From Patescibacteria group bacterium (GTDB taxonomy: Bacteria > Patescibacteriota > Patescibacteriia > Patescibacteriales > JAQTRU01), in the NCBI GenBank assembly GCA_041645555.1, contig JBAZPX010000001.1, forward strand, positions 204,731-268,730: a DNA stretch of 64,000 nucleotides, in the 5' to 3' direction. Below are positions 6,287 through 64,000 of the stretch, in pieces. Within the stretch, counting starts at the first letter, position 1, and every line of letters starts with the position of its first letter. The translations under genes and the position numbers were made by a program. The notes below the pieces were generated by a model. It was not told the DNA's origin. It saw only the letters and a list, made by a program, of their open reading frames with translations, and did not search any database.

Positions 6287-8080
6287 ATGATTGAAAAAGA
6301 ATTAAATCTAAAACTGGACAGAAGGCCGATTAATATGCGCCAGTTTTGGCTAAGACTGTGGCGGTTAATCGCGCCGGCGCATAAGCAAATTATTTATTTG
6401 CTTGTTTTAACAATGTTTTTAGAAGGATCTAAATTCATCGGCCCATATTTAGTTAAAAGAATTATTGACTTAATTACCGACTTTAAAGTTGAGTATATAG
6501 AAAATATAATAATTTTGATTATTTTGATATTAATTTCCGATTTGTTAGTCAACCTCATAGATTATTTCGGGGATAAAAAAATATTTAGAATTATTGTCGG
6601 CGTGGAAAGGTATTTATCAATTAACGCCCAGAAGAAAATGGTAGAGCTGGGGCTGGCTTACCATGAAAAAGAAAATACCGGCAATAAAATTTTTAAGATT
6701 CATAGGGGTATTGATAAGATAACCGACCTGATAGGCAATTTTTTCTGGGAAGTCGGGCCGACGATTATCCAGGTGGTTATGACCGGAGTTATTTTATTTT
6801 TGGTTGACTGGCGTTTTGGCTTAATTTTTTCCCTTTTTACCCCGGTTTTTATTTATCTGACCGCGAAGCTGAATAAAAAAATTTCTCCCTTGCGCCGATT
6901 GAGGCATGATTTGTACGAAGAAGCCGCCGGCAAAATGACCCAGACAATAATAAATATTAATACCGTGAAATCATTCGTCCAGGAGGAGAGAGAGGTAAAC
7001 GAGTTTAAAAAGATAAAAGATAAAAGCAAGAAAGTCGCGCTGTTCGAATTTTTTAAGATGCTTAGCTATAATTATTCCCGCAGCGCGGTTATAACCGCCG
7101 GCCGGGTTTTAATAATACTTTTCGGCGTTTATTTGGTTTGGAACGGCGGCATTACTATCGGCAGTTTAGTCTTTATAATTACGATTTCGGAAAAGGCCCT
7201 TGTTTCCCTATTTAGAATTTCCCGGCTTTATGACCGGATTATGGATTCAAGCGAGGCGATTGACCGCCTTTATAAACTGGCTAATCAGGAACTTGATATT
7301 ATTAACCCGGCTAATGGCCTTAAAGTGAAAGACCTGCGGGGCCAGGTTGAGTTTAAAGGCGTAACTTTCATTTATAAAGACAGCCGAGTAAGGGCGCTTG
7401 ATAAAGTAGATTTTAAAATAAATTCCGGCTGCACCACGGCTTTAATCGGCCCGTCCGGCGGCGGAAAAACTACGGTCGCGCGCCTGATTTACCGGCATTA
7501 TGATCCGCAAAGCGGGACGGTATTTTTGGACGATAAGAATTTAAAAGACTATGATTTATATGAGTTTAGAAAATTTATAGCGATTGTGCCGCAGGAAGTA
7601 GAAGTTTTTAATACGAGCGTAAAAGATAATATTTCTTACGCCAACCCGGGCGCTAGCTTGGCGGAGATCAAGGCCGCGGCCAAAATTGCCAATGCCGACG
7701 AGTTTATTGACCAGTTATCGGATAAATATGAAACTTTGGTCGGGGAACGGGGGATTAAACTCTCCGGCGGGCAGAAGCAAAGAATCGGCATTGCCCGGGC
7801 GGTTTTGGCTAATCCGCGGATTTTGATTTTTGACGAAGCGACTTCTAATTTAGACAGCAAAAGCGAAAAATTAATTCAGGAAGCGATGGAAAAAATTAAA
7901 CGGGGCAGAACCGTAATAGTTATTGCCCATCGCTTAAGCACGATAAAGAAAGCGGATAAAATTATTGTTTTAGAAGACGGGAAAGTGTCTGAAGAGGGCA
8001 GCCACTATGAGTTAGCCAGTAGAAATGGCGGCTTGTACGCCGAACTGTTAAAGTTGCAGAGGATGGGGGACGTGGACTAG
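6287..8080 (+). CDS. ABC transporter, fused permease/ATPase (MsbA/ABCB-type exporter)
   Basis: Six-TM N-terminal domain, Walker A GPSGGGKTT, signature LSGGQKQRIGIARA and Walker B ILIFDEATS. The ATG at 6287 is preferred over the TTG at 6272. Confidence 0.85.
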   Translation: MIEKELNLKLDRRPINMRQFWLRLWRLIAPAHKQIIYLLVLTMFLEGSKFIGPYLVKRIIDLITDFKVEYIENIIILIILILISDLLVNLIDYFGDKKIFRIIVGVERYLSINAQKKMVELGLAYHEKENTGNKIFKIHRGIDKITDLIGNFFWEVGPTIIQVVMTGVILFLVDWRFGLIFSLFTPVFIYLTAKLNKKISPLRRLRHDLYEEAAGKMTQTIININTVKSFVQEEREVNEFKKIKDKSKKVALFEFFKMLSYNYSRSAVITAGRVLIILFGVYLVWNGGITIGSLVFIITISEKALVSLFRISRLYDRIMDSSEAIDRLYKLANQELDIINPANGLKVKDLRGQVEFKGVTFIYKDSRVRALDKVDFKINSGCTTALIGPSGGGKTTVARLIYRHYDPQSGTVFLDDKNLKDYDLYEFRKFIAIVPQEVEVFNTSVKDNISYANPGASLAEIKAAAKIANADEFIDQLSDKYETLVGERGIKLSGGQKQRIGIARAVLANPRILIFDEATSNLDSKSEKLIQEAMEKIKRGRTVIVIAHRLSTIKKADKIIVLEDGKVSEEGSHYELASRNGGLYAELLKLQRMGDVD

Positions 8081-8123
8081 CGATTTTAGAATTAAGATTT
8101 TAGAATTAAGATTTAAATAAAAA

Positions 8124-8151
8124 AACGCTCGGGTGCTGCCTGAGCGTTTTT
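8124..8151 (+). terminator. Rho-independent terminator after the ABC transporter gene
   Basis: Hairpin acgctc...gagcgt followed by ttttt. Confidence 0.65.
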
Positions 8152-8200
8152 GATGGGTCAAGGGCTGGATTTTTATCTGTTTTTTTGGTAAAATTTGTAG

Positions 8201-8235
8201 TAGGATTATTAAGATTTTTGGGATTCTTAGGATTT
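8201..8235. repeat. Intergenic word array (taggatt/aagattt words) upstream of murB
   Basis: taggattattaagatttttgggattcttaggattt. The same word set recurs downstream of murB at 9180-9222. Confidence 0.8.
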
Positions 8236-8237
8236 GT

Positions 8238-9176
8238 ATGGGAAATATTCAAAAAGACATACCTTTAGCCCAGTTTACCACTTTCCGGATTGGCGGGCCG
8301 GCTAAGTTTTTTATTGAAGTAAAAGAGAAAGATAATTTGCTGGAGGCGATAAAATGGGCTAAGGAGAGTAAAGAAAAATTTTATATTTTGGGCGGGGGCA
8401 GCAATATAATAATAAACGATAAGGGAGTTGACGGTTTAGTGATAAAAATGGCTAATGATAATATTACGGTTCATGGCGAAAGAATGGAGACCGGAGCCGG
8501 AGCGACTTTAGCCCGGGCTGTGCTCCTCGCCACTGGTGAAAATTTGTCCGGTTTGGAATGGGCGGCCGGCATTCCCAGAGCGACAATCGGCGGAGCGATT
8601 CGGGGAAATGCCGGCGCTTTTAGCTTGTCTATGGCTGAAGTAGCGGAGACGGTTGAAGTCTTTAATGTTAAAAAGGAAAAATTTGAATTATTCAGCCATA
8701 AAGACTGCCGGTTTGATTATCGCGAAAGTATTTTTAAGAAAGATAATAGTTATTTAATTTGGAACGTTGTTCTCAAACTGGAAAAGGGAAATAAAATCCA
8801 GATTCAATCCGCGGTAAATAAATTTTTAGAATCAAGGCAGAGCCGGCAGCCAAAACTTCCCAGCGCCGGTTCGGTTTTTAAAAATTTGCCGCTTGATTAT
8901 TTAAAAGAGAACAATGCGAACATAGCGGACTTAGCCAACAAGGCCGGCGTTGTTAAAGAAGGCAAAGTCGGAGCCGGCTGGCTGATAGAGCTGGCTGGGC
9001 TTAAGGGCAAAAAAATCGGGGGAGCAAAAGTGAGCTTAGAGCACGCTAATTTTATTGTTAACACCAGCCAAGCCACGGCCGAAGATATTGTGATGCTAAT
9101 TAGTTATATTAAGCAGCAAGTCAGGAACAGGTTTAATATCCAGTTGCAGGAAGAAGTACAGTATTTAGGGTTTTGA
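8238..9176 (+). CDS. murB: UDP-N-acetylenolpyruvoylglucosamine reductase MurB
   Basis: FAD-binding N-terminus (FTTFRIGGPAKFF, LGGGSNII) and C-terminal MurB motifs (PSAGSVFKNL, HANFIVN). Confidence 0.9.
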   Translation: MGNIQKDIPLAQFTTFRIGGPAKFFIEVKEKDNLLEAIKWAKESKEKFYILGGGSNIIINDKGVDGLVIKMANDNITVHGERMETGAGATLARAVLLATGENLSGLEWAAGIPRATIGGAIRGNAGAFSLSMAEVAETVEVFNVKKEKFELFSHKDCRFDYRESIFKKDNSYLIWNVVLKLEKGNKIQIQSAVNKFLESRQSRQPKLPSAGSVFKNLPLDYLKENNANIADLANKAGVVKEGKVGAGWLIELAGLKGKKIGGAKVSLEHANFIVNTSQATAEDIVMLISYIKQQVRNRFNIQLQEEVQYLGF

Positions 9177-9179
9177 GGC

Positions 9180-9222
9180 GGGATTCTTGAGATTATTAAG
9201 ATCTTTAGGATCCTTAGGATTT
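9180..9222. repeat. Intergenic word array (period about 9, gattcttRa / ctttaggat)
   Basis: gggattcttgagattattaagatctttaggatccttaggattt, read directly from the sequence. Confidence 0.8.
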
Positions 9223-9239
9223 AATTTTCTAAATTTTTG

Positions 9240-13120: not shown

Positions 13121-14584
13121 ATGGATATTGTCATAGATTTTTCATCTGTCTACAATTTTTTTAATACCAGCCCGGATTTACTGATGTGGCGGACTTTTTT
13201 ATTGTTCGGCTGGCTGCCGATTTCTTTGGCTTTCCTTTGGGGCGCTAAAGAAAGTTGGATTTTTTACATAAAGACTCAATGGGATAAGACAAATAAATAT
13301 GTTCTTTTAGCCGTTGATATCCCGCGCAATAACGAGCAGACGATTAAGGCGGTGGAAAATTTATTCACTTATATCGGCGGCGCCCACAAAACCCATACTT
13401 TAATTGAAAAATATTGGGAGGGACAATTTCAAATACCTTTCAGTTTTGAGATTATTAGCATAGAGGGTTACACCCAGTTTTTAATCCGCCCCCACGTGAA
13501 ATTCCGGGATATGGTGGAAGCCGCGGTTTATTCCCAATATCCGGATGCGGAAATTACCGAAGTTGATGATTACACCGAGGGCATGCCCGATAAATTTCCG
13601 GACGAAGTTTATGATATCTGGGGGTGCGAATTTATCCAGGCTAAAAATCCTATCTATCCGATTAAGACTTATGAAGAATTTGAGCAACAAATGGGGCCGC
13701 CCGAGGCCCAATATAAAGACACCATGGCAACTTTAATGGATTTATGCAGCAGTTTAAAAAAGGGCGAACAGTTTTGGTTCCAGATATTAATTAAGCCTAT
13801 GGGTTTTGACTGGCCGGAGGAAGGGGAAAAAGAAGTAAAGAGAATTTTGAAGGAAAAGCTGCCGGCTACTTTCGCCAATAATGTAATAGATGGAATTATT
13901 GGTTGGATGGGAAATATTAGCGAATCTATTTATAGTATTTGGGGGGATATTGAGGAAAAAGACGAAAAAGACGACGCTTTAAAAATGATGAATTTGAAGC
14001 CGAAAGAAAAAAAACAGGTAGAAGCTATTCAAAACAAGACCAGTAAATTAGGTTTTCAATTTAAATCAAGGTTTATTTATGTCGCCAAAAAAGAAATAAT
14101 GAACAAACCTAAGGTCAGGGAAGGATTTATCGGCTATATGAAGCAATTTATGGATTTAGACCTGAATAATTTAAAACCAGACATGGATTTAACGGCGACC
14201 TCTGCAGATTATTTTTTTACGGAGTACCGCGCCAATGTAAGAAAGAATAAAATTATGCGGGCTTATAAAGGCAGGAGCACTACCCGCGGAAGAAATATGG
14301 GCATAATGAATATAGAGGAGCTGGCCACTCTTTGGCATTTCCCAATAGAGTTCGTGGTTAAAGCGCCGATGATCCAAAAAGCGCCGGGAAGAAAATCCGG
14401 TCCGCCCATGCAACTGCCGATTGGCGAAGAAATAGTAAGCGAAGCTACGCTTGAACCGGAGTTTATGGAAGAGGGAAACAAAAATAAGAATGGAAAAAAA
14501 GAATTACGGGACGAAGTTATGACTAAAGAGGAGAATAATCCGAAAAAAAATGCTTCCCCGCCGGCTAACTTGCCGTTTGCCTAA
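13121..14584 (+). CDS. Membrane-anchored protein of unknown function (two N-terminal TM helices, large soluble domain, Lys/Glu-rich tail)
   Basis: Long uninterrupted ORF. The ATG at 13121 is preferred because the TTG at 13100 lies inside the word array. Confidence 0.7.
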   Translation: MDIVIDFSSVYNFFNTSPDLLMWRTFLLFGWLPISLAFLWGAKESWIFYIKTQWDKTNKYVLLAVDIPRNNEQTIKAVENLFTYIGGAHKTHTLIEKYWEGQFQIPFSFEIISIEGYTQFLIRPHVKFRDMVEAAVYSQYPDAEITEVDDYTEGMPDKFPDEVYDIWGCEFIQAKNPIYPIKTYEEFEQQMGPPEAQYKDTMATLMDLCSSLKKGEQFWFQILIKPMGFDWPEEGEKEVKRILKEKLPATFANNVIDGIIGWMGNISESIYSIWGDIEEKDEKDDALKMMNLKPKEKKQVEAIQNKTSKLGFQFKSRFIYVAKKEIMNKPKVREGFIGYMKQFMDLDLNNLKPDMDLTATSADYFFTEYRANVRKNKIMRAYKGRSTTRGRNMGIMNIEELATLWHFPIEFVVKAPMIQKAPGRKSGPPMQLPIGEEIVSEATLEPEFMEEGNKNKNGKKELRDEVMTKEENNPKKNASPPANLPFA

Positions 14585-14594
14585 AAAATTAACT

Positions 14595-14664
14595 GGGATT
14601 CTTGAGACTCTTAGGATTATTAGGATAGTGTTATTTTCAAAATCCTAATCCCGAGTACTCGGGA
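14595..14664. repeat. Intergenic word array plus 16-nt perfect palindrome tcccgagtactcggga
   Basis: gggattcttgagactcttaggattattaggat faces aaaatcctaatcc. The palindrome with its flank (tcccgagtactcgggactaa) is repeated at 23132-23151. Confidence 0.8.
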
Positions 14665-16183: not shown

Positions 16184-16373
16184 CCTTTCCCGTCCTTGCC
16201 CATACAACCTCTATAACTTCAGCCGAAGCATTATAGAGGTTTTTTTATTTGCCAATCTGTTTATAGCCTGGAGCCAACAAAAGCATTGAGCTTATCCAAC
16301 AATAATGGTAAAATAAATTCAGATAACCAAAACAGTTTTTCTGTCTGTTTTTTGGTATAGGGAATTTCTAAAT

Positions 16374-17132
16374 ATGAATAATTTAGTTAAAAAAATAGCT
16401 AATTTCCTGGATCTAAAAGAATTAGGCAAAAGAGCCGCTACGGTTATTGTTTTAACTCTGACCGCAATTATTACGGTTTGGGTTTACGCGGCGTTTGTTG
16501 AGCCTTCAGTTGGCCCCAATTCTTCCGACCAGGATTTCGCCCAGAATATTTTAGGCAATAATGACGCTAATAACGATTTTAGCTCTTCTAATGTCGCTTC
16601 TAACGCCGACGGCAGTATTATTGAAAGAGAAGAGTATATCCAGACAGGAATCGGCACCAATGCGAGCGCGACTACGACACCCTCCGCAGCTTCCTCGCTT
16701 TGGAGCGGGTTGAAGTATATAGAAGGTAATATGTTGAACAAAAAAAAGTATTATTTGACTTCGGCCACGATGGAGGGCGGTGGGCCTTTGACCGCCTGCG
16801 CCTCTGGGTACCACTTCGCTTCATTATGGGAATTAATTGATCTTAATCAACACACTTACAACTCATCTCTTGGGATGTATTTGGATGATTCCGGGTTGTA
16901 TGGTCCTCCAGTCGGCACACTCGGGTGGATCAGGACCGGTGGTGTCTCTAATACCACAGTTACTGTAGGTACGGGAAATTGCGCCGCCTGGACATCAACT
17001 AGCGGAGCTCATTATGGAACTATGGCAAGGATAACAACATCATGGGCAGGGGGCGCCACAACCATCTCTCCTTGGGAAGGCGACATAGACTTTTGCAACA
17101 CACAGCACAGAGCGTGGTGCATGCAAAATTAA
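16374..17132 (+). CDS. Membrane-anchored surface protein: conserved N-terminal module plus Cys-containing C-terminal domain
   Basis: The N-terminal ~110 aa are homologous to the 44261 CDS (AAFVEP..GPNSSDQDFAQNILGNNDANNDFSSSNVASNADGSIIEREEY). Terminator ccgcagtc...gactgcgg-tttt at 17208-17237. Confidence 0.75.
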   Translation: MNNLVKKIANFLDLKELGKRAATVIVLTLTAIITVWVYAAFVEPSVGPNSSDQDFAQNILGNNDANNDFSSSNVASNADGSIIEREEYIQTGIGTNASATTTPSAASSLWSGLKYIEGNMLNKKKYYLTSATMEGGGPLTACASGYHFASLWELIDLNQHTYNSSLGMYLDDSGLYGPPVGTLGWIRTGGVSNTTVTVGTGNCAAWTSTSGAHYGTMARITTSWAGGATTISPWEGDIDFCNTQHRAWCMQN

Positions 17133-17332
17133 TAGGATACCCTTAGTAGATAGAGGATTAATACTTGCTTAACGGTTTACCTTTGGTATTAATTGTTAAA
17201 TTATTTCCGCAGTCTTTTCACGGGGACTGCGGTTTTGTTATAATTGAGATTAAAATTATCTCATTTGCCAACACTGTCCTTCTTAGGTATGATAATAGAT
17301 GAAATAAAGGTTATTAATTAACGCCCGATAAC

Positions 17333-36250: not shown

Positions 36251-36262
36251 AATGTAGTATTT

Positions 36263-36340
36263 GGGATTTTTAGGATTTTTACGATTCTTGAGATTCTTAA
36301 GATCCTAATAATCCCAAGAATCCTAAGAATCACAATAATC
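36263..36340. repeat. Intergenic period-9 word palindrome (gattcttRa / aatcctaag)
   Basis: gggatttttaggatttttacgattcttgagattcttaagatcc faces aatcccaagaatcctaagaatcacaataatc. Confidence 0.85.
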
Positions 36341-37242: not shown

Positions 37243-37332
37243 TATAAAAACAAAATAATAAGATAATATAAAAAGAGCCGTCTGTTAAGGCGGTTTTCTT
37301 TTAGGAAGTTAAAAGTTTATAAAGTTAAATTG

Positions 37333-37418
37333 TGGGATCTTTAGGATTCTTACGATTTTTGGGATTCTTGGGATTTTTTAAAAACTCTATCTTAAGAATC
37401 CTAAGAATCTCAAGAATC
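37333..37418. repeat. Intergenic period-9 word palindrome (same word family as 36263-36340)
   Basis: gggatctttaggattcttacgatttttgggattcttgggatt faces cttaagaatcctaagaatctcaagaatcc. Confidence 0.85.
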
Positions 37419-37476: not shown

Positions 37477-38643
37477 ATGCAAAAAAATAAAGAAAAAACA
37501 AAGCGCATCGGCATTGACGCCCGCTTTTATGGTCCGATTGGCAAAGGTTTAGGCCGGTATACTAAAGAAGTTGTGGATAAGGTAGTGGCTTTAGACAGAG
37601 AGAATGAATATGTAATTTTTTTAAGCAATGAAAATTTTAGTGAGTTTGTTTCTGGCAATCCGAAAGTGAAAAAGGTTTTGGCCGATGTGCATTGGTATAC
37701 TTTAGCCGAGCAAATCATTATGCCTTATTTAATTTGGCGGGCGCATTTGGATTTAATGCATTTTCCCCATTTTAACGTGCCGGTCCTGACGCCGGTTAAA
37801 TTTGTCGTTACTATCCATGATTTAATTTTAACGAAATTTCCCACCGTTCGGGCTACGACTTTAAGCCCGCTTTTTTATAAAATAAAAAACCGGATTTATC
37901 GGATGGTTATTTGGCTGGCAATAAAGAGAGCTAAAACCGTCATTGCCGTATCGCAATTTACTAAAGATGATATTGCCGGGCAGTTTAAGATCAAGCCGGA
38001 AAAAGTGGTTGTTACCCACGAAGGAGTTTCCAGTTTGCTTAATAGAAAGTCAGATGATTTTCCCCATGACAAAGAAACGCCTTTAGGTTATAATATAGGC
38101 AGCCCCTTCTTACTTTACGTGGGCAATGCTTATCCTCATAAGAATTTAGAAGGGTTGGTTAAGGTTTTTTCTGTTATCCATGGGAAAAGGTCTGATTTGA
38201 GTTTAATTTTAGTCGGCAGACAGGATTATTTTTATAAGCGGGTCAAAGAGTTTACGGAAAAATATTGGGGTGAAAAAAGTCCGGTGGTTTTTCCCGGCTT
38301 TGTGCCTGATAGGAATCTGAAGCTTTTATATGGCCAGGCCTTGGCTTATGTGTTTCCTTCGTTTTATGAAGGTTTTGGCCTGCCACCCTTAGAAGCGATG
38401 GCTTGCGGCTGCCCGGTGGCAAGCTCTAATAAATCCAGCTTGCCGGAAATTTTAGGAGAAGCGGCAATTTATTTTAATCCGGAAGATGAGAAAGAAATGA
38501 CGAGGCAGATTGAGAAGATTGTAGGGGATGAAAATCTGCGGCAGGAATTGACAAAAAAAGGTTATGAACAAGTAAAAAAATATAGCTGGGAGAAATGCGC
38601 GAAGGAGACTTTAGAAGTTTATAGAGAAGTTTTTAAGAAGTGA
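37477..38643 (+). CDS. Glycosyltransferase family 4 (GT-B, GT1 clan)
   Basis: EGFGLPPLEAMACGCPV motif. TGTTATAAT extended -10 ends only 6 nt before the ATG. Confidence 0.85.
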   Translation: MQKNKEKTKRIGIDARFYGPIGKGLGRYTKEVVDKVVALDRENEYVIFLSNENFSEFVSGNPKVKKVLADVHWYTLAEQIIMPYLIWRAHLDLMHFPHFNVPVLTPVKFVVTIHDLILTKFPTVRATTLSPLFYKIKNRIYRMVIWLAIKRAKTVIAVSQFTKDDIAGQFKIKPEKVVVTHEGVSSLLNRKSDDFPHDKETPLGYNIGSPFLLYVGNAYPHKNLEGLVKVFSVIHGKRSDLSLILVGRQDYFYKRVKEFTEKYWGEKSPVVFPGFVPDRNLKLLYGQALAYVFPSFYEGFGLPPLEAMACGCPVASSNKSSLPEILGEAAIYFNPEDEKEMTRQIEKIVGDENLRQELTKKGYEQVKKYSWEKCAKETLEVYREVFKK

Positions 38644-43848: not shown

Positions 43849-44250
43849 GTCATTGCGAGTCCCGAAGCCTCGGGACGAAGCAATCTCTGGTTAAATAGAA
43901 AAACATGTTAAACGAACGATACTATTTTGTTTATATAAACACCAATAAAACCCACAACGTTTTTTATACCGGAGTGACCAATAATTTATTAAATAGGAAT
44001 TACCAGCATAAGAGCAAAGAGAATAAATTAAATTTCACAGCCAAATATAAGGTAAATAAATTAGTCTATTGCGAGACGTTTTCCGATATCCGTGATGCCA
44101 TTGCCAGAGAAAAGCAAATCAAAGGTGGTTCCAGAAAAGATAAAATCAACCTTATAATTAAATTAAACCCGGAGTGGAAAGATTTAAGCTTGGATATGTA
44201 AAACCAGAGATTGCTTCGTCTCCCGCCTCGGCGGGATCCTCGCAATGACA
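43849..44250 (+). mobile_element. IR-bounded element carrying a GIY-YIG nuclease gene
   Basis: The left arm tgtcattgcgag...cgaagcaatctctggtt is the reverse complement of the right arm aaccagagattgcttcg...ctcgcaatgaca. The ORF stop abuts the right arm. Confidence 0.75.
43905..44201 (+). CDS. GIY-YIG nuclease family protein (98 aa)
   Basis: YFVYINTNKTHNVFYTGVTNNLLNRNYQHK matches the GIY-(X)n-YIG pattern, with REKQIKGGSRKDK at the C-terminus. Confidence 0.85.
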   Translation: MLNERYYFVYINTNKTHNVFYTGVTNNLLNRNYQHKSKENKLNFTAKYKVNKLVYCETFSDIRDAIAREKQIKGGSRKDKINLIIKLNPEWKDLSLDM

Positions 44251-44260
44251 AGGGAAAATA

Positions 44261-45277
44261 ATGGATAAGCAAACCCTGAAAACTAAAATTAAAGCCCAAG
44301 CCAAGAAAATCGCTTGGCGGGCAATCACCACGGTTATTTTAACTCTAACCGCGGTTATTACGGTTTGGGCTTATGCCGCGTTTGTTGAACCCTTAGTCGG
44401 ACCGAATTCCTCTGACCAGGATTTTGCCCAGAATATTTTAGGCAATAACGACGCTAACAATGATTTTAGTTCTTCTAACGTCGCTTCTAACGCTGACGGC
44501 AGTATTATCGAAAGAGAAGAATATTTGCAAACCCAAATCGGCACTTATGCTGACGCCACGACTACGCCGAGTGCGGCAAGTTCGGTGTTCGCGGCGTTGA
44601 AGGGATTGGATTCTTCGTATCAGGAATACACTAGCGGAAGTGGGAACTGGACGGCTCCGGCTGGTGTCTATTTGATTAATGTGCTCCTTGTCGCCGGAGG
44701 CGGAGGTGGCGGTTCTACAGTGGCAAATTCAGGAGCAAGTGGCGGAGGCGGAGGTGGTGAAACTTTTTCTATGATGAATTATAAAGTTGTGCCCGGAACT
44801 GCTTATGCATATGCAGTAGGCGCTGGAGGTTCCGGAGCAACAGGAAACGACGCGGATGGTTCAAATGGCTCAACCTCCACCTTCATGGGTTATTCTGTTG
44901 CGGCTGGTTATGGTGGGAAGAGGGGAACGGTTATGACCGCCGGAAATGGTGGCGGGGTGGGTGGCGGAACAGCCGGCGGTACTCCAGGAAGTGGTACGAC
45001 GATGGGAGGAGCACTTTTTTCGAGGACTGGCGGAGGAGCAGGGAGCAATGGCAATAGCGCCTCCGCCGCTGGAAGCAGTATCGGTTCTGGCGGTGGACTA
45101 ACGGCTCCGGGCGGCGCAAGCTATCGTTCATCTCCGGATGGTCCTTATACGAATGGGGTTGGAATAAATGCACCTGCCAATAGTGGTGCCGGCGGCAGCG
45201 GAGCAACTAATTCGAACGCAGGCGGGATTTTGCCTGGAGGAAATGGTGGTTCTGGTTATATTTTAATAACTTGGTGA
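44261..45277 (+). CDS. Membrane-anchored surface protein: conserved N-terminal module plus glycine-rich C-terminal domain
   Basis: The N-terminus is homologous to the 16374 CDS. The C-terminus has GGGGGGS.../GGNGGSGYILITW glycine-rich repeats. Confidence 0.8.
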   Translation: MDKQTLKTKIKAQAKKIAWRAITTVILTLTAVITVWAYAAFVEPLVGPNSSDQDFAQNILGNNDANNDFSSSNVASNADGSIIEREEYLQTQIGTYADATTTPSAASSVFAALKGLDSSYQEYTSGSGNWTAPAGVYLINVLLVAGGGGGGSTVANSGASGGGGGGETFSMMNYKVVPGTAYAYAVGAGGSGATGNDADGSNGSTSTFMGYSVAAGYGGKRGTVMTAGNGGGVGGGTAGGTPGSGTTMGGALFSRTGGGAGSNGNSASAAGSSIGSGGGLTAPGGASYRSSPDGPYTNGVGINAPANSGAGGSGATNSNAGGILPGGNGGSGYILITW

Positions 45278-45313
45278 GTAATAATAAGTGCAAAAATTAA
45301 AAGAGCTTCCTTT

Positions 45314-45514
45314 TGTCATTGCGAGGAAGGAGTTCCACAGAATTGCGGGACGACTGACGAAGCAATCTAAGGTTAGCTGGAAGTAACAAGAAAATTAAAA
45401 AACATCATTTTATCCGAATAAATACTAATGATAGACATTTAACAGAATCAGACTTTATACCTTTAAACCAGAGATTGCTTCGGCTCCCGCCTCGGCGGGA
45501 TCCTCGCAATGACA
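45314..45514 (+). mobile_element. ORF-less derivative of the GIY-YIG element
   Basis: The right arm at 45466-45514 differs at 1 of 49 nt from 44202-44250. The left arm starts tgtcattgcgag...gaagcaatctaaggtt. The interior is only ~90 nt. Confidence 0.7.
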
Positions 45515-53075: not shown

Positions 53076-54182
53076 ATGCGCGTAGCTTTAATTCATGACC
53101 ATCTAGCCCAAGACGGGGGCGCGGAAAAAGTTTTAAAAGTCCTGACGGAAATGTTTCCCGAGGCGCCGATTTATACCCTGCTTTACGAGAAGAAAAACGC
53201 CGACAAATATTTTAAGAACCGGCAGATAGAAACTTCTATTATTCAAAAGCTTCCGGGCGGGATAAAGCATTACCAGTGGTATATGCCGTTTATGCCTATG
53301 GCCGTAGAATTTTTTGATCTGCGGGAATATGATTTGGTGATTTCCGACACCAGCTCTTTTGCTAAAGGCGTCATTACTTCAACTGATACTCTTCATATTT
53401 GTTATTGCCATACTCCGACCCGTTATCTTTGGGATTATACCCATCAATACATAAACGAACTTAAATACAATAAATATTTAAAAAAAATAATTTCTCTGAT
53501 TTTAAATTACATCCGGGTGTGGGATAGAGAGGCGGCGGATCGGGTGGATACTTATGTTGCCAATTCCGAGACCATAAAAAAAAGAATTAAAAAATATTAC
53601 CGGCGGGAGGCAGCCGTAATTTATCCGCCGGTAGAGATTGAAAATTTTCATATTTCCGAAAGCCAGAAAGATTATTTTTTAATTGGCGGCCGGCTAGCCC
53701 CCTATAAACGGGTGGATATTGTGGTGGAAGCTTTTAAAAATTCAGGTAAAAAACTTAAAATTTTTGGGGACGGGGTTGATTTAGAAAGACTAAAAGAAAT
53801 AGCCGCTGGCAGTAAAAATATCGAATTTTTAGGCCGGGTCAATGATAAAGCTAAAGCGGAGTTATATAGCAATTGCCAGGCATTCTTAAATCCGCAGGAG
53901 GAAGATTTCGGCATTACCGTTGTCGAAGCCATGGCTTCCGGCCGGCCCATAATCGCTTTTCGCAAAGGCGGGGCCACTGAAACCGTGATTGAAGGAAAAA
54001 CCGGCATATTTTTTGACGAGCAGACGCCGGCGGCGGTCGCCGAAGCTGTGGAAAATTTTAGCGCTAAAGAGTGGCAGCCGGCTGAAATCCGCAGCCAAGC
54101 CGAGCGGTTTTCCGTGGAAAAATTTAAAAGAGAACTGGGAAGTTTTATCGAGGAGGAATACAGGAAGTTTAAAGAGAAATAG
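53076..54182 (+). CDS. Glycosyltransferase family 4
   Basis: EDFGITVVEAMASGRPIIAF motif. Located in the glycosylation gene block. Confidence 0.85.
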   Translation: MRVALIHDHLAQDGGAEKVLKVLTEMFPEAPIYTLLYEKKNADKYFKNRQIETSIIQKLPGGIKHYQWYMPFMPMAVEFFDLREYDLVISDTSSFAKGVITSTDTLHICYCHTPTRYLWDYTHQYINELKYNKYLKKIISLILNYIRVWDREAADRVDTYVANSETIKKRIKKYYRREAAVIYPPVEIENFHISESQKDYFLIGGRLAPYKRVDIVVEAFKNSGKKLKIFGDGVDLERLKEIAAGSKNIEFLGRVNDKAKAELYSNCQAFLNPQEEDFGITVVEAMASGRPIIAFRKGGATETVIEGKTGIFFDEQTPAAVAEAVENFSAKEWQPAEIRSQAERFSVEKFKRELGSFIEEEYRKFKEK

Positions 54183-59278: not shown

Positions 59279-59344
59279 GTGTTAGCTTTTAGCTTCTAGA
59301 GCGGTATTTTGTATCTCTATTGTTTTATGGTATAATATTATTAT

Positions 59345-59442
59345 TAAGATTCTTAAGACTCTTGGGATATTTATGATTTTTGAGAAACTCGGAACTTTGA
59401 AATCCTAAGAATCTTAAGAATCGCGATAATCCTAAAAATCTC
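59345..59442. repeat. Period-9 word palindrome between an extended -10 element (59327-59335) and the first Cys-rich paralog
   Basis: aagattcttaagactcttgggat ... aaatcctaagaatcttaagaatcgcgataatcc. TGGTATAAT lies just upstream, so the palindrome is probably in the 5' UTR. Confidence 0.8.
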
Positions 59443-59457
59443 AAATAAAAATTCCCC

Positions 59458-61008
59458 ATGCTTCCAAAAAAATTCTCTCTACTTCTAATCTTCTCTATTA
59501 TCCTAACCCTAGGCCTATCCATATCCCTGGGTTCTCTTTTGGCGGCCTGGACGGCCCCGGCTTCTAGTCCTCCGGAAGGTAATATTGCCGCCCCGATTAA
59601 TACGGGCGCGACTTTACAAGCAAAACAAGTCGGTTTGTGGCTTAACTATTTACCATTGGATGAGGGTGGTAGCGCCAACGGTTTACTTGTCCAATATGGC
59701 AATGTCGGCATTGGCACAACCACCCCCCAAGCTAAATTAGAAGTGGTAGGCAATATTATTGCTGATGCCCCAACGGCCAGTAATGAAGTAGCGACAAAAG
59801 GATATGTGGACGCATCGGGAGGCAGCGCCGGTCTTGATCAATATTATGAATCCTGGTGCGCGGCTCACCAAGGCCAGAAATGCGCGCGAAGCGGAACTAT
59901 GGATTATAAATGTATGGGTGATTTCTGCACTAAAGCCGGTATTTCCAATGATATGGATGAAGATGGAGTTACGGGAGCGACTGATTGCAATGACAGTCCT
60001 GGGAGTGGCTCGACCATCGGCGCGGCGGCTGACGGCACTTGCGATGGTGACGCGGATGGCAAAATTGACGTATCCGCCTATCTCACTACTCCCAAGCCGG
60101 CCGAGGCTGATTGTTACGACAGTAATCCGGCCAAATATTCTTGTTTGAGCAATGGCACGACTTGCAGCAGCGGAATTTATTGCGCTTCCACTTATTGCGT
60201 AGATGGATATTGTTGCGAGAGCACCTGCACCGGCCAGACTTGTCAGACTTGCGGAATCTATTCCAGCGCCGGAGCTGGTAAGTGCGGTTATGTAAATAAT
60301 TCTTTGCAAGATCCGCATAATAACTGCAGCCAAGGCTCAACGGCCAGTGATGGGTGCAGTTCTAATAATTGCAGCGGTACTGGCTATTCTTGCGGCACGC
60401 CGCAAACTTCAGGATATGGCGGTTGCCCAACATGTGGATATTGTAATGGCGCGAGCATTGCTTGCACGGCTTATATTAATGGTTTTTATGACTCCAGGTT
60501 GCAGGGATGCAAAACCTGTAATGGAACCATAGGAGGTTTTAATACTATGCCCGATACTAATTGGGGCGCTAACCAATATAACTGTGCTGGTTCCTCTTCC
60601 CGTTGCGTTTCCGGAAATTGCCGGGCTTGTGACGGTTATCTTTATAGCGATGGTTGCAATGGTTGTGCGGGCCAGGGCGGACAAGCCTGTTGGCGCGCTA
60701 TAATGCAAGGATCATGCGATGATAGTTGTAATAACTATGGCGGCTGTATCGCGGGAGGATGGAATGATGATGCTAGCTGTTCAGTTTGCAAGCACATAGA
60801 ACCCGCTGCTACAGAATGTATAACTCATCAGTATGATTTTTTCCCTGCCAATTATTATTATAATTTTAGTTACGGTTCCAGCACTAAATACTGCTATCGA
60901 AGGGATACTGCCCAGACTCCCAATATTAATTGTAGTCTTTCCGTAAGCCCTTATTGTTCCGGAGCGGGGTGCAGTGGATACATAAGGTTATGTGTGTGTA
61001 AGTGGTAA
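59458..61008 (+). CDS. Membrane-anchored cysteine-rich surface protein, paralog 1
   Basis: Signal anchor LLLIFSIILTLGLSISLGSLLAAW, then the conserved block TAPASSPPEGNIAAPIN...GNVGIGTTTPQAKLEVVGN, then a Cys-rich C-terminus. Confidence 0.85.
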   Translation: MLPKKFSLLLIFSIILTLGLSISLGSLLAAWTAPASSPPEGNIAAPINTGATLQAKQVGLWLNYLPLDEGGSANGLLVQYGNVGIGTTTPQAKLEVVGNIIADAPTASNEVATKGYVDASGGSAGLDQYYESWCAAHQGQKCARSGTMDYKCMGDFCTKAGISNDMDEDGVTGATDCNDSPGSGSTIGAAADGTCDGDADGKIDVSAYLTTPKPAEADCYDSNPAKYSCLSNGTTCSSGIYCASTYCVDGYCCESTCTGQTCQTCGIYSSAGAGKCGYVNNSLQDPHNNCSQGSTASDGCSSNNCSGTGYSCGTPQTSGYGGCPTCGYCNGASIACTAYINGFYDSRLQGCKTCNGTIGGFNTMPDTNWGANQYNCAGSSSRCVSGNCRACDGYLYSDGCNGCAGQGGQACWRAIMQGSCDDSCNNYGGCIAGGWNDDASCSVCKHIEPAATECITHQYDFFPANYYYNFSYGSSTKYCYRRDTAQTPNINCSLSVSPYCSGAGCSGYIRLCVCKW

Positions 61009-61032: not shown

Positions 61033-62619
61033 ATGCTTCCAAAAAAATTCTCTCTACTTCTAATATTCTCCATTATTCTCACTCTGGGATTATCCATATC
61101 TCTAGGTTCTCTTCTAGCGGCCTGGACCGCTCCGGCTTCTAGTCCTCCGGAAGGTAATATTGCCGCTCCGATAAACACGGGTGCGACTTTACAAGCGAAA
61201 CAAGTCGGTTTATGGCTTAACTATTTACCATTAGATGAGGGTGGTAGCGCCAACGGTTTACTTGTCCAATATGGCAATGTCGGCATTGGCACAACCACCC
61301 CCCAAGCAAAATTAGAAGTAGTAGGCAATATTATTGCTGATGCTCCGACGGCCGGCAACCACTTAGCGACTAAGGCTTATGTGGATGCGGCCGGAGGCGC
61401 TGGAGGTGAATATGTGCAGGGAAATGCGGTTTATTTTACTTCTGGCGGTAATAATTATTATTGCTCCCAACGTTCCGTAAGTTCAAGCGGGGTGGTTACC
61501 ATAAGCAACGTAAACGAGGGGCAGCCTTGTGATATCAATAAGGTGTGTAATTCTGGGCGATGCTCATCTCTCGGTGAATTCGCTACGGCCTGCACTACCA
61601 GTTCCCAATGTTCTTCCGGTTATTGTGTGGATGGATATTGTTGCGATAGCGCTTGCAGCAGCGTTTGCCGGGCCTGTAATGTTTTTGGCAGTTCCGGCAT
61701 TTGTACCAGTATCCCGGTTGGCACAGATCCGGCTAGTGAATGTTCTTTGGTTACCTGTACTAATTATATATATGGCGGGACAAACCCTTCATGCTATAAA
61801 TATGCTAGTGCCAACTCTAACAATGGTATGTGCAACGGAGCTGGTGCTTGTTATACTTCATCGGCTGATTCCTGCACCGGTCAAGGGGGAGCGACTATAA
61901 CTTGCGGTAACACTGGCTGCTGGAAAGCCTGTGTGGCTGATGCCTTAGCGACTTCTTTTGATAATTATAGTGAAGTTTGCCATACCTCCGGTACTCAAAA
62001 TTGCACTAGCGGTCTTGTCTGCGATGCTACTGGCGCCTGTAAATCAGGGGCCGGAGCGGTTTGCACAGCTGATAGCCAGTGTGGTAGTGGCTATTTATGC
62101 GGTGTTGATGCCGATGGCGATAGATATTTAACTAGTGCCACAACCGGTACTTGTGTTTTGGGGACAGCCCATATTGATTGCTGCGACTCCGATTCCGGAG
62201 TACATCCGGGTACTGGGATTAGAAGCACTGCAAGTGCATGCGGTGGATGGGACTTAGATTGCAATGGATCAGTGCAAAAAGATTCTTCGTGTAAGACATG
62301 TACGTCTTGTTCCTTGTGTGGCACCTCTCGTTCGGCTTCATCTGTAGGACAATCCTGTGTGAGTTGCACGGGAGCATCTACTGTTTATGATGGGTGGTCT
62401 CATACTTGCGGCGTTTCAGCCAATTGCGGACAAACTTTCACTCAAAGGGGTTGCAGGCCCAAGGCCGTGAGTTGCCCCACTTGTTATAGTGATTGGCAAC
62501 CTTGGGGTTGTTATCTTCATGATGCAACCGGTTGTGATGTTTGGGGGCCAACCTTTGGAATTTATTTTTGGCAAAATGATTTATGCGATATTGGAGCTCA
62601 AACTTGCGGATGTAATTAG
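61033..62619 (+). CDS. Membrane-anchored cysteine-rich surface protein, paralog 2
   Basis: The first ~112 aa are identical to paralog 1. The Cys-rich C-terminus is different. Confidence 0.85.
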   Translation: MLPKKFSLLLIFSIILTLGLSISLGSLLAAWTAPASSPPEGNIAAPINTGATLQAKQVGLWLNYLPLDEGGSANGLLVQYGNVGIGTTTPQAKLEVVGNIIADAPTAGNHLATKAYVDAAGGAGGEYVQGNAVYFTSGGNNYYCSQRSVSSSGVVTISNVNEGQPCDINKVCNSGRCSSLGEFATACTTSSQCSSGYCVDGYCCDSACSSVCRACNVFGSSGICTSIPVGTDPASECSLVTCTNYIYGGTNPSCYKYASANSNNGMCNGAGACYTSSADSCTGQGGATITCGNTGCWKACVADALATSFDNYSEVCHTSGTQNCTSGLVCDATGACKSGAGAVCTADSQCGSGYLCGVDADGDRYLTSATTGTCVLGTAHIDCCDSDSGVHPGTGIRSTASACGGWDLDCNGSVQKDSSCKTCTSCSLCGTSRSASSVGQSCVSCTGASTVYDGWSHTCGVSANCGQTFTQRGCRPKAVSCPTCYSDWQPWGCYLHDATGCDVWGPTFGIYFWQNDLCDIGAQTCGCN

Positions 62620-62683: not shown

Positions 62684-64000
62684 ATGCTTCCAAAAAAATT
62701 CTCTCTACTTCTAATATTCTCCATTATCCTTACCCTAGGATTATCCATATCTCTAGGTTCTCTTCTAGCGGCCTGGACCGCTCCGGCTTCTACTCCTCCG
62801 GAAGGTAATATTGCCGCTCCGATTAACGCCGGCTATACTGCCCAAGCTAAAAAAGGCGGTTTAATCTTAAACACTGGCGAAGGCGGCGAAGCTATGCTTA
62901 ACGGCTTGATAGTTCAATTTGGCAATGTCGGCATTGGCACGACCAGCCCCCAAGCTAAATTAGAAGTAGTAGGCAATATTATTGCCGATGCTCCGACGGC
63001 CGGCAACCACTTAACTACCAAAGAATATGTTGATGCCATAGGCGGCGGTAGCTGTCTAGACCAATATCAGCATTCTTGGTGTACCGATCATCAAGGAGAA
63101 AAATGCGCTCGGAGCGGCACTATGGACTACAAATGCGTAGGCGATTTTTGCACTAAAGCCGGAATCTCCAATGATATGGACGGCGACGGGATAAGTGGCG
63201 CAACCGATTGTAATGATAATGACCCGACCATTGTCGCGGCCACTGACGGCACTTGCGACGGAGATGCGGACGGGAAAATTGACCAAACCGCCTATCTTGC
63301 TACCCCCAAACTAGCCGCGGCCGATTGTTATGACAGTAATCCCGCTAAATATTCTTGTTTAAGCAATGGTACAGTTTGCAGTAGTGGAATTTATTGCGCT
63401 TCCACTTATTGCGTAGATGGGTACTGTTGCAATAACGCTTGTACAGGAAGTACCTGCCAGACTTGCGGGATTTATTCAAGCAACGGAGTCGGCGCCTGCG
63501 GTTATATAAATAATTCTTCGCAAGATCCTGATAGCGAATGCAGTCAAGGTTCAGCCACTGGCGATGGCTGCCGTTCTAATTATTGTAGCGGCAATAGTTA
63601 TGCCTGCGGGATTCAAACCAGCGGAAATGGCGGATGCCCGGCTTGCCAGACATGCGCTGACTCCGATATTGCTTGCGAATATGAGACCGTCAGCACCGAT
63701 CCTGGTGATCGATGTCCGGCCATAACCTGTATGAATTATATTTATGGCTGGTCCGGAAATAGTTGTTTAAAATATTCTTCAAATACAGCCAACAACGGGT
63801 TATGCGACGGAGCTGGATCCTGTTATGGCGTAGCTAGTTCCTGTTCAGGCGCCGGGCTAATTTCTGCTTCTTGCGGGAACTCCCAATGCAATAAAGCCTG
63901 CGTCGCTAATTCCTTAGCCACTAGTTATGACACTGCGGCCGAAATATGTTATGTGAATAATGAGCCAGCTTCTTGCTCTACTGGTTATTCCTGCAGCCCA
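62684..64000 (+). CDS. Membrane-anchored cysteine-rich surface protein, paralog 3 (3' end outside window)
   Basis: Absent from the ORF track because no stop lies in the window. The ATG at 62684 is preceded by the same gtttattataaatattacataaaa leader as paralog 2. The frame is open to base 64000. Confidence 0.85.
   Translation, partial: MLPKKFSLLLIFSIILTLGLSISLGSLLAAWTAPASTPPEGNIAAPINAGYTAQAKKGGLILNTGEGGEAMLNGLIVQFGNVGIGTTSPQAKLEVVGNIIADAPTAGNHLTTKEYVDAIGGGSCLDQYQHSWCTDHQGEKCARSGTMDYKCVGDFCTKAGISNDMDGDGISGATDCNDNDPTIVAATDGTCDGDADGKIDQTAYLATPKLAAADCYDSNPAKYSCLSNGTVCSSGIYCASTYCVDGYCCNNACTGSTCQTCGIYSSNGVGACGYINNSSQDPDSECSQGSATGDGCRSNYCSGNSYACGIQTSGNGGCPACQTCADSDIACEYETVSTDPGDRCPAITCMNYIYGWSGNSCLKYSSNTANNGLCDGAGSCYGVASSCSGAGLISASCGNSQCNKACVANSLATSYDTAAEICYVNNEPASCSTGYSCSP

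Follow-up and report, generated by a model that had tools for sequence, protein, structure and literature searches.

Two genes in a 64-kb stretch of a Patescibacteria genome (contig JBAZPX010000001.1, positions 204,731 to 268,730; this whole stretch is called the window below), here designated A and B, encode proteins that share an N-terminal module and carry unrelated C-terminal parts. We consider it probable that both belong to a multigene family, not described before, whose products are exported surface proteins resembling phage fibres, in which a common proximal stalk or docking unit carries exchangeable ligand-binding heads. The observation at the centre of this proposal is a unit of about 40 amino acids (aa) within the module which also occurs, in 1-12 copies, in virion fibre proteins of uncultured phages. 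Both genes are on the + strand, 27.9 kb apart, and are composed as follows (positions are those of the window; ORF, open reading frame; T1 and T2 are signal subtypes described below).

16374..17132, + strand: gene A, 252 aa, from the ORF call; family member with T1-type signal part, core unit, linker and Cys-containing head
16374..16490, + strand: A residues 1-39, basic n-region and ~20 hydrophobic residues ending in V-Y-A; predicted Sec signal peptide or signal-anchor, judged from the AlphaFold2 (AF2) helix and the (-3,-1) pattern
16491..16637, + strand: A residues 40-88, 49-aa core consisting of A-F-V-E-P-x-x-G-P and the ~40-aa fibre unit (SDQDFAQNILGNNDANNDFSSSNVASNADGSIIEREE)
16638..16724, + strand: A residues 89-117, a short second element in common with B, including a linker rich in Thr/Ser/Ala (IQTGIGT..ATTTPSAASS..); the similarity between A and B stops here
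16725..17129, + strand: A residues 118-252, Cys-containing head without Pfam or NCBIfam match
44261..45277, + strand: gene B, 338 aa, from the ORF call; family member with T2-type signal part, core unit, linker and glycine-rich head
44261..44377, + strand: B residues 1-39, predicted signal peptide or signal-anchor (..KKIAWRAITTVILTLTAVITVWAYA)
44378..44611, + strand: B residues 40-117, 49-aa core and linker element
44633..45274, + strand: B residues 125-338, glycine-rich (TNF-like plus Gly-rich) domain of receptor-binding type, with matches to PF21722, phrog_863 and the Pam3 tail fibre

Extent and age of the shared module

The initial annotation of the window had reported that A and B share about 110 N-terminal residues, that their DNA is roughly 85% identical over about 240 nucleotides (nt) and that most differences are synonymous. 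These estimates proved to be close to the measured values. In a BLASTP comparison with composition correction, residues 15-117 aligned without gaps at 79% identity (E 9e-54), and no similarity was detected downstream of residue 117. At the DNA level the repeat extended over 235 nt (16447-16681 and 44334-44568) with 83% identity. The flanks were unrelated, identity being at background level (37% of nt) before codon 20 and after about codon 109-113. No third copy of the module was found in the window by tblastn.

Within codons 27-108 we counted 33 synonymous and 14 nonsynonymous differences, 34 of the 47 being located in third codon positions. This corresponds to a synonymous divergence (dS) of ~1.08, a nonsynonymous divergence (dN) of 0.078 and a dN/dS ratio of 0.07. 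In codons 39-88, 17 synonymous differences stood against a single nonsynonymous one, and 48 of the 49 core residues were identical. Since the differences are dominated by synonymous changes and dS is high, the similarity must be old and has been kept by selection on the protein. Recent gene conversion is ruled out by a dS of about 1 and by the lack of any identical DNA run longer than 23 nt, and the similarity does not stem from a recent duplication either. An artefact of low complexity is ruled out by the composition-corrected E-value and by the conservation of the module throughout the family.

The core unit is shared with phage fibre proteins

A profile was built from 18 sequences, all of them Patescibacteria modules, and searched against 1.84 billion representatives. 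It matched 448 protein clusters at E ≤ 1e-3 and 59 at E ≤ 1e-30. The matches were of two types. Proteins of the first type had 57-608 aa and a single copy at the extreme N-terminus (136 in the sample, median 226 aa). Those of the second type had 300-1600 aa, were devoid of a hydrophobic segment and contained the last ~40 residues of the profile repeated 2-12 times.

These last ~40 residues define the unit, for which we derived the consensus SDQDFaQNILGaNnAdNDFdSSxVxxNxDGSIIERLEY. The pattern shared by cell and phage proteins is [IV]LGxNxAxNxFxSxxVxxNxDGSxxERxE, and in the multi-unit proteins [IV]LGxDDADNxFxSxNVVANxDGSxLERLExxQ recurs every 35-45 aa. The columns G, N, G, E, R and E are invariant in the units of both. 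The profile, although made from Patescibacteria sequences only, matched multi-unit proteins with E-values of 1e-46 to 1e-60 and single units with 1e-12 to 1e-17.

The multi-unit protein P0041 (948 aa, 6 units) is encoded directly after a major capsid gene and before other virion genes, on a contig that also carries a terminase and an SU10-type portal gene. P0037 and P0052 are located in co-oriented blocks with an HNH gene or a gene for a pectate-lyase-type protein. Retrieval from IMG/VR with one narrow peptide pattern yielded 79 unit-bearing contigs, whose proteins belonged to three architectures: proteins of ~190 aa in which the unit (residues ~6-46) precedes a head of ~140 aa, proteins of ~520-570 aa with a beta-helix-like N-terminal part, the unit and then the same ~140-aa head, and fibres with 3-6 units. 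On contig L109 two genes of the ~190-aa kind (7983-9132) lie between an HK97-type capsid gene and a gene for a gp6-like connector. In both L109 and L034 (10001-12847) the unit genes directly follow the major capsid gene, which is the usual site of head fibre or decoration genes and not of tail fibre genes.

None of the unit-bearing phage proteins matched a PHROG or Pfam entry, a cultured phage or a solved structure, and no Pfam, NCBIfam or PHROG model covers the module itself. A tblastn search of cultured phages with P0042 and B was negative, as was a sequence search of solved structures with A, P0042 and the phage proteins L041 and L098. Two matches of the unit profile, one with an 'adaptor protein' (30yu, E 0.033) and one with tectonin, were discarded, being limited to an 18-residue motif that is too short. 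Weak library matches to HRG, DUF5128 and ARM_TT21 were below the cut-offs or inside Cys-rich linkers. An EF-hand-like calcium loop, suspected by eye in N-x-D-G-S-I-I-E, was rejected as the ligand positions do not fit. A literature search returned no publication describing the module.

Cell and phage proteins are further connected by L130, a Patescibacteria member which carries, in addition to its unit, the 'GYGDDYFNNKYW' domain that separates units in phage proteins. The phage versions have no signal, and the members of the A/B family begin with predicted Sec signals. A protein encoded on IMG/VR contig L064 (1355-2065) combines a classical signal peptide (..VSVSYA↓G; here and below the arrow marks the predicted cleavage site) with two fibre units and the common phage head. 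Judged by its sequence, this protein of a putative virus or prophage is exported and stands midway between the cell and phage architectures.

Size and spread of the family

A word-indexed search with the module gave a first set of 30 relatives. All were unnamed and lacked Pfam domains, and most had ~96 aa and consisted of the module only, with a conserved C-terminus ..DGSIIERLEYxxxYLDSR. The Patescibacteria members that were fetched had one N-terminal unit each and lengths of 94-550 aa; in Patescibacteria as a whole the module was likewise single and N-terminal throughout, in multi-copy genes for proteins of 94-610 aa. All relatives carrying an organism name came from assemblies of Patescibacteria (candidate phyla radiation, CPR). 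A scan with one genome per species revealed 27 loci in seven Patescibacteria or unclassified assemblies, many of them at contig ends. Copy numbers were considerable: the fragmented draft of metagenome-assembled genome (MAG) STD1_219 had 5 loci with at least 8 member genes according to an ORF scan, M50B90 had 6 family loci, MAG137 had 7 and a Falkowbacteria genome had 2. A protein identical to A was recorded as P0053 and is present on three contigs as well.

Two loci contained family genes with a disrupted appearance. In L004 (3030-3762) separate ORFs, whose homology is with the middle and the end of longer paralogs, come after a module gene of 138 aa. In L007 (7322-8128) the second of two genes matches the first over its 5' two-thirds and then continues into unrelated sequence; a simple frameshift copy is ruled out here, since the DNA diverges completely and does not show a homopolymer slip. 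These genes could be pseudogenes, recombination products or assembly errors.

The abundance of the ~96-aa proteins might suggest that the module is the polymerisation domain of a novel pilin-like surface filament, with the short proteins as major subunit and paralogs such as A and B as minor or tip subunits. The module-only genes are indeed common, are conserved to the last residue and are often found directly upstream of longer paralogs (L001, L004); a hydrophobic conserved N-terminus combined with a variable C-terminus follows the logic of pilins; pilus genes (T2SSF, GspH, N_methyl) lie within 6 kb of the family genes in L001; and the extreme constraint on the core would fit subunit-subunit packing. 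However, A and B lack the prepilin motif G↓F-x-x-x-E, and in both the hydrophobic segment lies before the cleavage-like site, not behind it. The N-terminal parts of A and B had no Pfam match, and NCBIfam gave none at E ≤ 1, although a pilin should be picked up there by a prepilin/N_methyl model. Moreover, the unit is homologous to phage fibre units, which are not polymerising pilins, and the window shows no conserved linkage to pilus genes. We therefore regard a filament as unlikely.

Signal part, junction and a second family

The signal part of family members consists of a basic n-region and an uncharged stretch with a median length of 19 aa. In A and B the n-region has 5-7 Lys/Arg residues, the h-region comprises ~20 aa, and the putative cleavage site reads V/A-Y-A↓A-F. 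Distinct subtypes can be recognised, namely T1 (..LKELGKRAxTVIxLTLTAIITV.., the type of A), T2 (..xWRAITTVILTLTAVxTV.., the type of B) and short classical signal peptides, e.g. MKIFLKKTILLISVILIILISNVTHA in members from M50B90 and MAG137; ..NVTHA↓AFTEP is another example of the short form. The second conserved element behind the unit reads IGTxAxATTTPSAASS in A and B; many relatives have the variant DAASMSxTLFAGQxxI, which is sometimes duplicated.

The junction between signal part and core was well conserved. Counted from its Phe, position F-4 was V, A or T in 103 of 116 representatives, F-2 was A in 111 and F-1 was A, S or G in 113. The Phe itself and the Glu were each present in 115 representatives and the Pro in 114, as was a second Pro after three variable positions (x-x-x). 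This gives the consensus [V/A/T]-x-A↓[A/S]-F-x-E-P with the predicted mature N-terminus A-F-x-E-P. A and B agree with what signal peptidase I requires: their n-region is basic, their h-region carries no charge, and the residues at -3 and -1 are small. Because conservation throughout the family begins exactly at the predicted cleavage site while the hydrophobic segment varies between subtypes, the junction looks as is normal where a conserved mature domain comes after a signal peptide.

A similar arrangement exists in three paralogs at the end of the window:

59458..61008, + strand: C1, member of a second family with constant N-terminus and variable C-terminus; signal, A-A↓W-T-A-P..PPxGN.., GNVGIGT fibre motif and Cys-rich C-terminus
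61033..62619, + strand: C2, 94% identical to C1 over the first 125 aa and unrelated afterwards
62684..64000, + strand: C3, running past the end of the window; 76% identical to C1 over 338 aa

The analogous layout that the initial annotation had seen in these genes is real. The three genes are tandem mosaics, and all contain the Cys-rich motif S.YCVDGYCC (at 60185, 61613 and 63399). Relatives of C1-C3 conserve small-x-A↓W-T-x-P-x-x-x-P-P, followed by GN..AP.N.G...Q.K.G.L and then GNVGIGT. Both families thus end their hydrophobic segment with small-x-Ala↓(Ala)-aromatic-x-x-Pro. They stand side by side in L014, and module proteins of M50B90 and MAG137 run on into GNVGIGT repeats. By this pattern the N-termini of the two families appear to be alternative starts of similar exported fibres.

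The resemblance of LAAWTAP and YAAFVEP, for which a shared processing or sorting site had been suggested at first, was therefore confirmed as a pattern conserved in both families. As for its meaning, the simplest reading is that a plain (-3,-1) site for signal peptidase I precedes a mature N-terminus specific to each family, and a special sorting site is not needed. It could still be argued that A-F-x-E-P..P, together with its counterpart in the AWTxP family, is a new sorting signal for a dedicated enzyme, which would recognise it behind the hydrophobic segment and process or attach the mature N-terminus, and that the rest of the module is a spacer. In at least 114 of the 116 representatives F, E and the two P are invariant, which goes beyond the needs of signal peptidase I, the second family keeps the analogous junction A-A↓W-T-x-P-x-x-x-P-P, and the adjacent families in L014 have the GNVGIGT fibre repeats downstream in common. 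On the other hand, the (-3,-1) rule and a conserved mature N-terminus explain the pattern fully, and conservation continues for another 45 residues which are homologous to signal-less phage units. As no candidate processing enzyme was linked to the genes in the loci examined either, we give a dedicated sorting signal only a small chance.

The heads

The two heads are unrelated, as the initial annotation had recognised in describing a Cys-containing domain in A and a glycine-rich one in B. B residues 125-338 matched PF21722 (Gly_rich_2) over profile positions 3-225 of 226 (1.8e-15, 58 bits with a cut-off of 24.3) and phrog_863 (1.5e-17), and were colinear with tail fibre gp24 of the myocyanophage Pam3 (7yfw/7ypx, E 0.004). 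The gp24 fibre is attached to the baseplate by a helical domain at its N-terminus, which also supplies most of the trimer interface, and TNF-like and Gly-rich domains recognise the receptor (PMC9608196). By analogy, the module in B would take the place of the docking and trimerisation domain of gp24.

A had no match to PF21722. Its head is 41-46% identical to those of four homologues (P0031-P0034), and the alignment has 41 invariant columns, four Cys among them. In these homologues, one of which is from Anaerolineae, the domain is placed behind a different N-terminal anchor. The head of A is also related to a group of 'CCASGYH' heads (P0063, hhalign 90%; L128, 34% identity, 3e-16). A link to DUF1554 was not confirmed (alignment of A heads against P0046, a family member with DUF1554; hhalign probability 0.8%). 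An AF2 model of the head based on 5 sequences had a predicted local distance difference test (pLDDT) value of 37.

Among 74 proteins with an N-terminal module, Pfam identified Lcl_C heads in 15, Fib_succ_major in 6, Gly_rich_2 in 3, DUF1554 in 2 and Endostatin in 1, and most of the others had no Pfam match. The recognisable heads of relatives are thus mostly of lectin-type families. A 396-aa protein of L004 provides a clear example of an Lcl_C head (4e-27); neither A nor B matched this domain (PF07603).

A constant N-terminus with a hypervariable C-terminus, several copies per genome and truncated 'orphan' modules are also what would be expected of secreted polymorphic-toxin or bacteriocin-type effectors, in which an N-terminal export or leader region delivers variable toxic or antimicrobial C-termini; several relatives do end in Cys-rich peptides of 40-80 aa (P0025-P0027, P0007, P0017). 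Yet the recognisable heads are of lectin or phage receptor-binding type and include no toxin domain, and no small immunity-like gene follows A (behind which a terminator-like hairpin and dnaE are found) or B (followed by a GIY-YIG remnant and the gene for a DUF11 protein). The conserved region, which is a phage fibre unit, is also far longer than a leader requires. Effectors are accordingly even less probable than a filament or a sorting signal. A leader of the kind found in ribosomally synthesised and post-translationally modified peptides (RiPPs) or bacteriocins is ruled out, as the heads are globular domains of 135-220 aa and the supposed leader contains a membrane-spanning segment. A target of a diversity-generating retroelement (DGR) was rejected too: the window contained no template/variable repeat pair, in particular no direct repeat involving the head of A or B (reverse transcriptase genes were not searched for systematically).

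Exchange of segments and constraint on the core

Close relatives of B which share its N-terminus were present in 15 metagenome loci. Their T2-type modules were 61-86% identical to that of B, and homology to B stopped at residue 89-92, 111-117, 125, 141-145, 222 or 255. Beyond these points the heads differed and consisted of glycine-rich, CCASGYH, Lcl_C-like, jelly-roll-like or phage-type domains. L119 contains two genes in tandem, one with an A-like and one with a B-like head. L011, from a related genome, keeps the order UppP-[family gene]-DnaE known from A, with neighbours that are 73-77% identical, and the family gene in this position combines a signal part of type T2 with a DUF1554-like head.

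A is itself a mosaic. Its 25 residues before the junction are 84-92% identical to those of T1 genes, whose cores are only 71-86% identical to that of A. Its core is 98% identical to that of B and 90-94% identical to the cores of T2 genes, the signal parts of which are 52-60% identical to that of A. From this mosaic and from the varied positions at which heads are joined we conclude that the family is built from three exchangeable segments, the signal part, the core and the head.

The cores of A and B stand out by their single nonsynonymous change (with 17 synonymous ones). Compared with 162 family pairs at a proportion of synonymous differences (pS) of 0.45-0.65, this is the minimum of a range of 1-27 with a median of 15; other pairs on the same contig (L004, L119, L129) are not so constrained, and A-B is a single case. 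Since 48 of 49 core residues were kept despite saturated synonymous divergence and despite a different signal part and head, the sequences hint at a constraint of the sort expected if paralogs in one cell had to fit one partner or each other. A bolder reading joins these observations: the 49-aa core would be a compatibility module common to Patescibacteria surface fibres and virion fibres of uncultured phages, the paralogs of one cell would all have to retain one and the same core because they co-assemble into mixed oligomers or dock to one common base, and cells and phages would trade heads by means of the unit. We put this forward tentatively and think it rather doubtful. If it were true, one small genome could display combinations of heads, and the headless 96-aa forms would tune valency.

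The initial annotation had seen in A and B a cassette system with a constant anchor or stalk and variable heads. The constant module and the exchangeable heads of this picture were supported, and 'stalk' fits better than 'anchor', the conserved unit being one that is repeated in phage fibre proteins. Active switching, by contrast, is not supported. A and B are complete genes with a dS of about 1, A has a promoter-like site ahead of it (16286-16314) and a terminator-like hairpin behind it (17207-17232), and there are no silent partial copies in the window. For the same reasons a system of the pilE/pilS kind was not recognised in the window, where silent partial copies and homogenisation at the DNA level (two complete genes, longest identical run 23 nt) were both absent.

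A model for the function of A and B

Against the background of the homologies, the size, distribution and copy number of the family, its mosaic structure and the purifying selection documented above, we picture the proteins in the following way. A Sec-type N-terminal signal or signal-anchor would export the protein. The conserved core would form the cell-proximal stalk, and its most likely function would be oligomerisation, with trimers as in phage fibres, or docking to a shared partner, or a combination of the two. The Thr/Ser/Ala-rich linker would join the core to an interchangeable distal head, which would point outward and bind a ligand. The probable target is a glycan or protein on the surface of the organism carrying this episymbiont. 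For B this head would be the glycine-rich receptor-recognition domain known from phage tail fibres, and for A the Cys-containing domain. The diversity of heads would have arisen by recombination at module boundaries over evolutionary time and not by programmed switching.

A number of points weigh against this model. We infer that the proteins are exported, displayed on the surface and adhesive and that the core oligomerises or docks, and the argument for oligomerisation by the core is an analogy with phage fibres only. Because the unit genes adjoin the capsid gene in both annotated phage contigs, the phage counterparts may belong to the head, as fibres or decoration proteins, and not be the receptor-binding fibres of the tail. 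The abundant ~96-aa genes with the YLDSR tail, which encode nothing but the module, have no obvious role in adhesion. The hydrophobic segment may be either a cleaved signal peptide or a retained signal-anchor; within subtypes it is well conserved and has a membrane-spanning length. If it is cleaved, we found no explanation for the retention of the protein on the cell. Structure prediction gave no support for the core: in an AF2 monomer of the module (18 sequences, mean pLDDT 60) residues 14-41 formed one helix with pLDDT 83-91, and this hydrophobic helix was the only confident part, the ectodomain having a pLDDT of ~50. In sequence and profile comparisons the core unit had no match among solved structures.

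Comparison with known systems

A constant proximal part with swappable binding heads is already well known from phage receptor-binding proteins, pilins and adhesins. What is new is an uncatalogued unit common to CPR surface proteins and fibres of uncultured phages, and a multi-copy family based on this unit in very small genomes.

Phage receptor-binding proteins are the closest parallel, as they too have a conserved proximal part and exchangeable distal parts. In Pam3 gp24 a proximal docking and trimerisation element precedes a distal receptor head, and this head's TNF-like plus glycine-rich part is homologous to the head of B. However, gp24 begins with a baseplate-docking helix bundle, whereas A and B begin with a predicted Sec signal or anchor and have as their proximal element a different unit of ~40 aa without a solved structure. 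Moreover, A and B are encoded singly in a cellular chromosome, with no fibre chaperone gene adjoining either of them.

The collagen-like adhesin Lcl of Legionella (PF07603, Lcl_C) has a signal peptide, a trimer-forming repetitive stalk of collagen-like GXY repeats and a C-terminal lectin-like head. Lcl_C heads are present on 15 of 74 module proteins, although not on A and B themselves, but the stalk of the A/B family is a single non-collagen unit. Type IV pilins have in common with the family a conserved hydrophobic N-terminus, a variable globular C-terminus and several paralogs with short 'major' and longer 'minor' forms. Unlike them, A and B have no prepilin motif and no model match in the N-terminal part, and the cleavage-like site is on the opposite side of the hydrophobic segment. 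Trimeric autotransporter adhesins resemble the family in their head-stalk-anchor modularity, in short repeated stalk or neck units and in swappable heads. Their polarity is the opposite, however, with a C-terminal beta-barrel in the outer membrane; Patescibacteria have no outer membrane, and no domain of these adhesins was detected in A or B.

The Vsp/Vlp lipoproteins of Mycoplasma and the pilE/pilS cassettes of Neisseria likewise form families of several genes in which the N-terminal export region is conserved and the distal parts vary; systems of this kind are what the initial annotation had in view. In contrast to these systems A and B have no lipobox Cys, no silent promoterless cassettes and no DNA homogenisation, and the heads of their family are unrelated folds and not variants of one sequence. 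Finally, DUF1566 targets of DGRs in CPR genomes are mentioned in PMC11661182. These targets are similar in having surface-exposed lectin-fold heads in the same group of organisms, and DUF1566 (Lcl_C) heads occur in the module family. The module family differs by its diversification through exchange of whole domains, and for neither the head of A nor that of B did the window contain a template/variable repeat pair.

Little is known about the way in which the ultrasmall, host-dependent Patescibacteria identify their hosts and stay attached to them. The module family offers concrete candidates for host attachment: it is multi-copy, predicted to be exported and made of phage-fibre parts, and its heads, which are of lectin type and of phage receptor-binding type, are exchanged among genes and genomes. 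According to PMC12206443 and PMC10633639, mainly type IV pili have been implicated in host attachment of Patescibacteria so far. Recognition of the ~40-aa unit in several hundred protein clusters of cells and uncultured phages would improve the annotation of CPR genomes and viral contigs. If the core is an oligomerisation or docking element, it would also provide a handle for pulling down surface complexes of uncultured organisms.

Genomic surroundings of A and B

The neighbours of A and B are housekeeping and envelope genes. A is flanked by the genes for UppP/BacA and DnaE. Around B there are genes for a DUF4012 protein, a GIY-YIG protein, a DUF11 protein, TGT and TruD. Neither gene is part of a virion structural gene module; in their presumed mode of working A and B resemble the unit-bearing virion proteins, but they are not phage genes. 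The least probable of the explanations considered, that A and B are prophage structural-gene remnants, or decoys against phages with the same fibre unit, and do not serve cell attachment, could draw on the phage-fibre type of both unit and head in B and on the two mobile GIY-YIG elements bracketing this gene, but A and B are solitary genes in housekeeping surroundings (UppP, DnaE, TGT, TruD), where no further phage gene lies close by, they have gained predicted Sec signals that are absent from the phage versions, and both strong purifying selection and a syntenic locus conserved across genomes speak against it. Each of the four alternatives to our model fails at least one test and is improbable rather than disproved.

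The GIY-YIG elements were found by a repeat and motif scan:

43849..44250, + strand: GIY-YIG element directly upstream of B; hairpin end, ORF 43905-44201 (PF01541, 1.3e-14), hairpin end
45313..45514, + strand: ORF-less copy of the element directly downstream of B

They are the only two palindromic elements of this type in the window, and they bracket B in equal orientation. The upstream element is intact, and the downstream element has matching hairpin ends without the ORF; the right ends of the two (44201-44250 and 45465-45514) are 98% identical. This arrangement could have arisen by chance insertion in adjacent intergenic regions, for which a crude count gives a frequency of roughly 4%, or B could have moved as a unit.

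Two further repeats were noted in the window. A 9-nt periodic motif, approximately (G/A)GAT(T/C)CTT(A/G), forms short intergenic arrays of 4-5 units at gene boundaries (8198-8240, 9176-9227, 14582-14633, 36259-36310, 37330-37381 and 59333-59384), the last of them just upstream of C1, the first AWTAP paralog. These arrays might be a regulator-binding or terminator-associated element. Three glycosyltransferase genes have a conserved stretch of 53 nt in common (38356-38408, 53889-53941 and 55072-55124), with 89% identity between two of the copies. The GT4 paralogs are located in the same region as the DUF4012 gene and B, and a similar neighbourhood of GT4, DUF4012 and module genes exists in L001.

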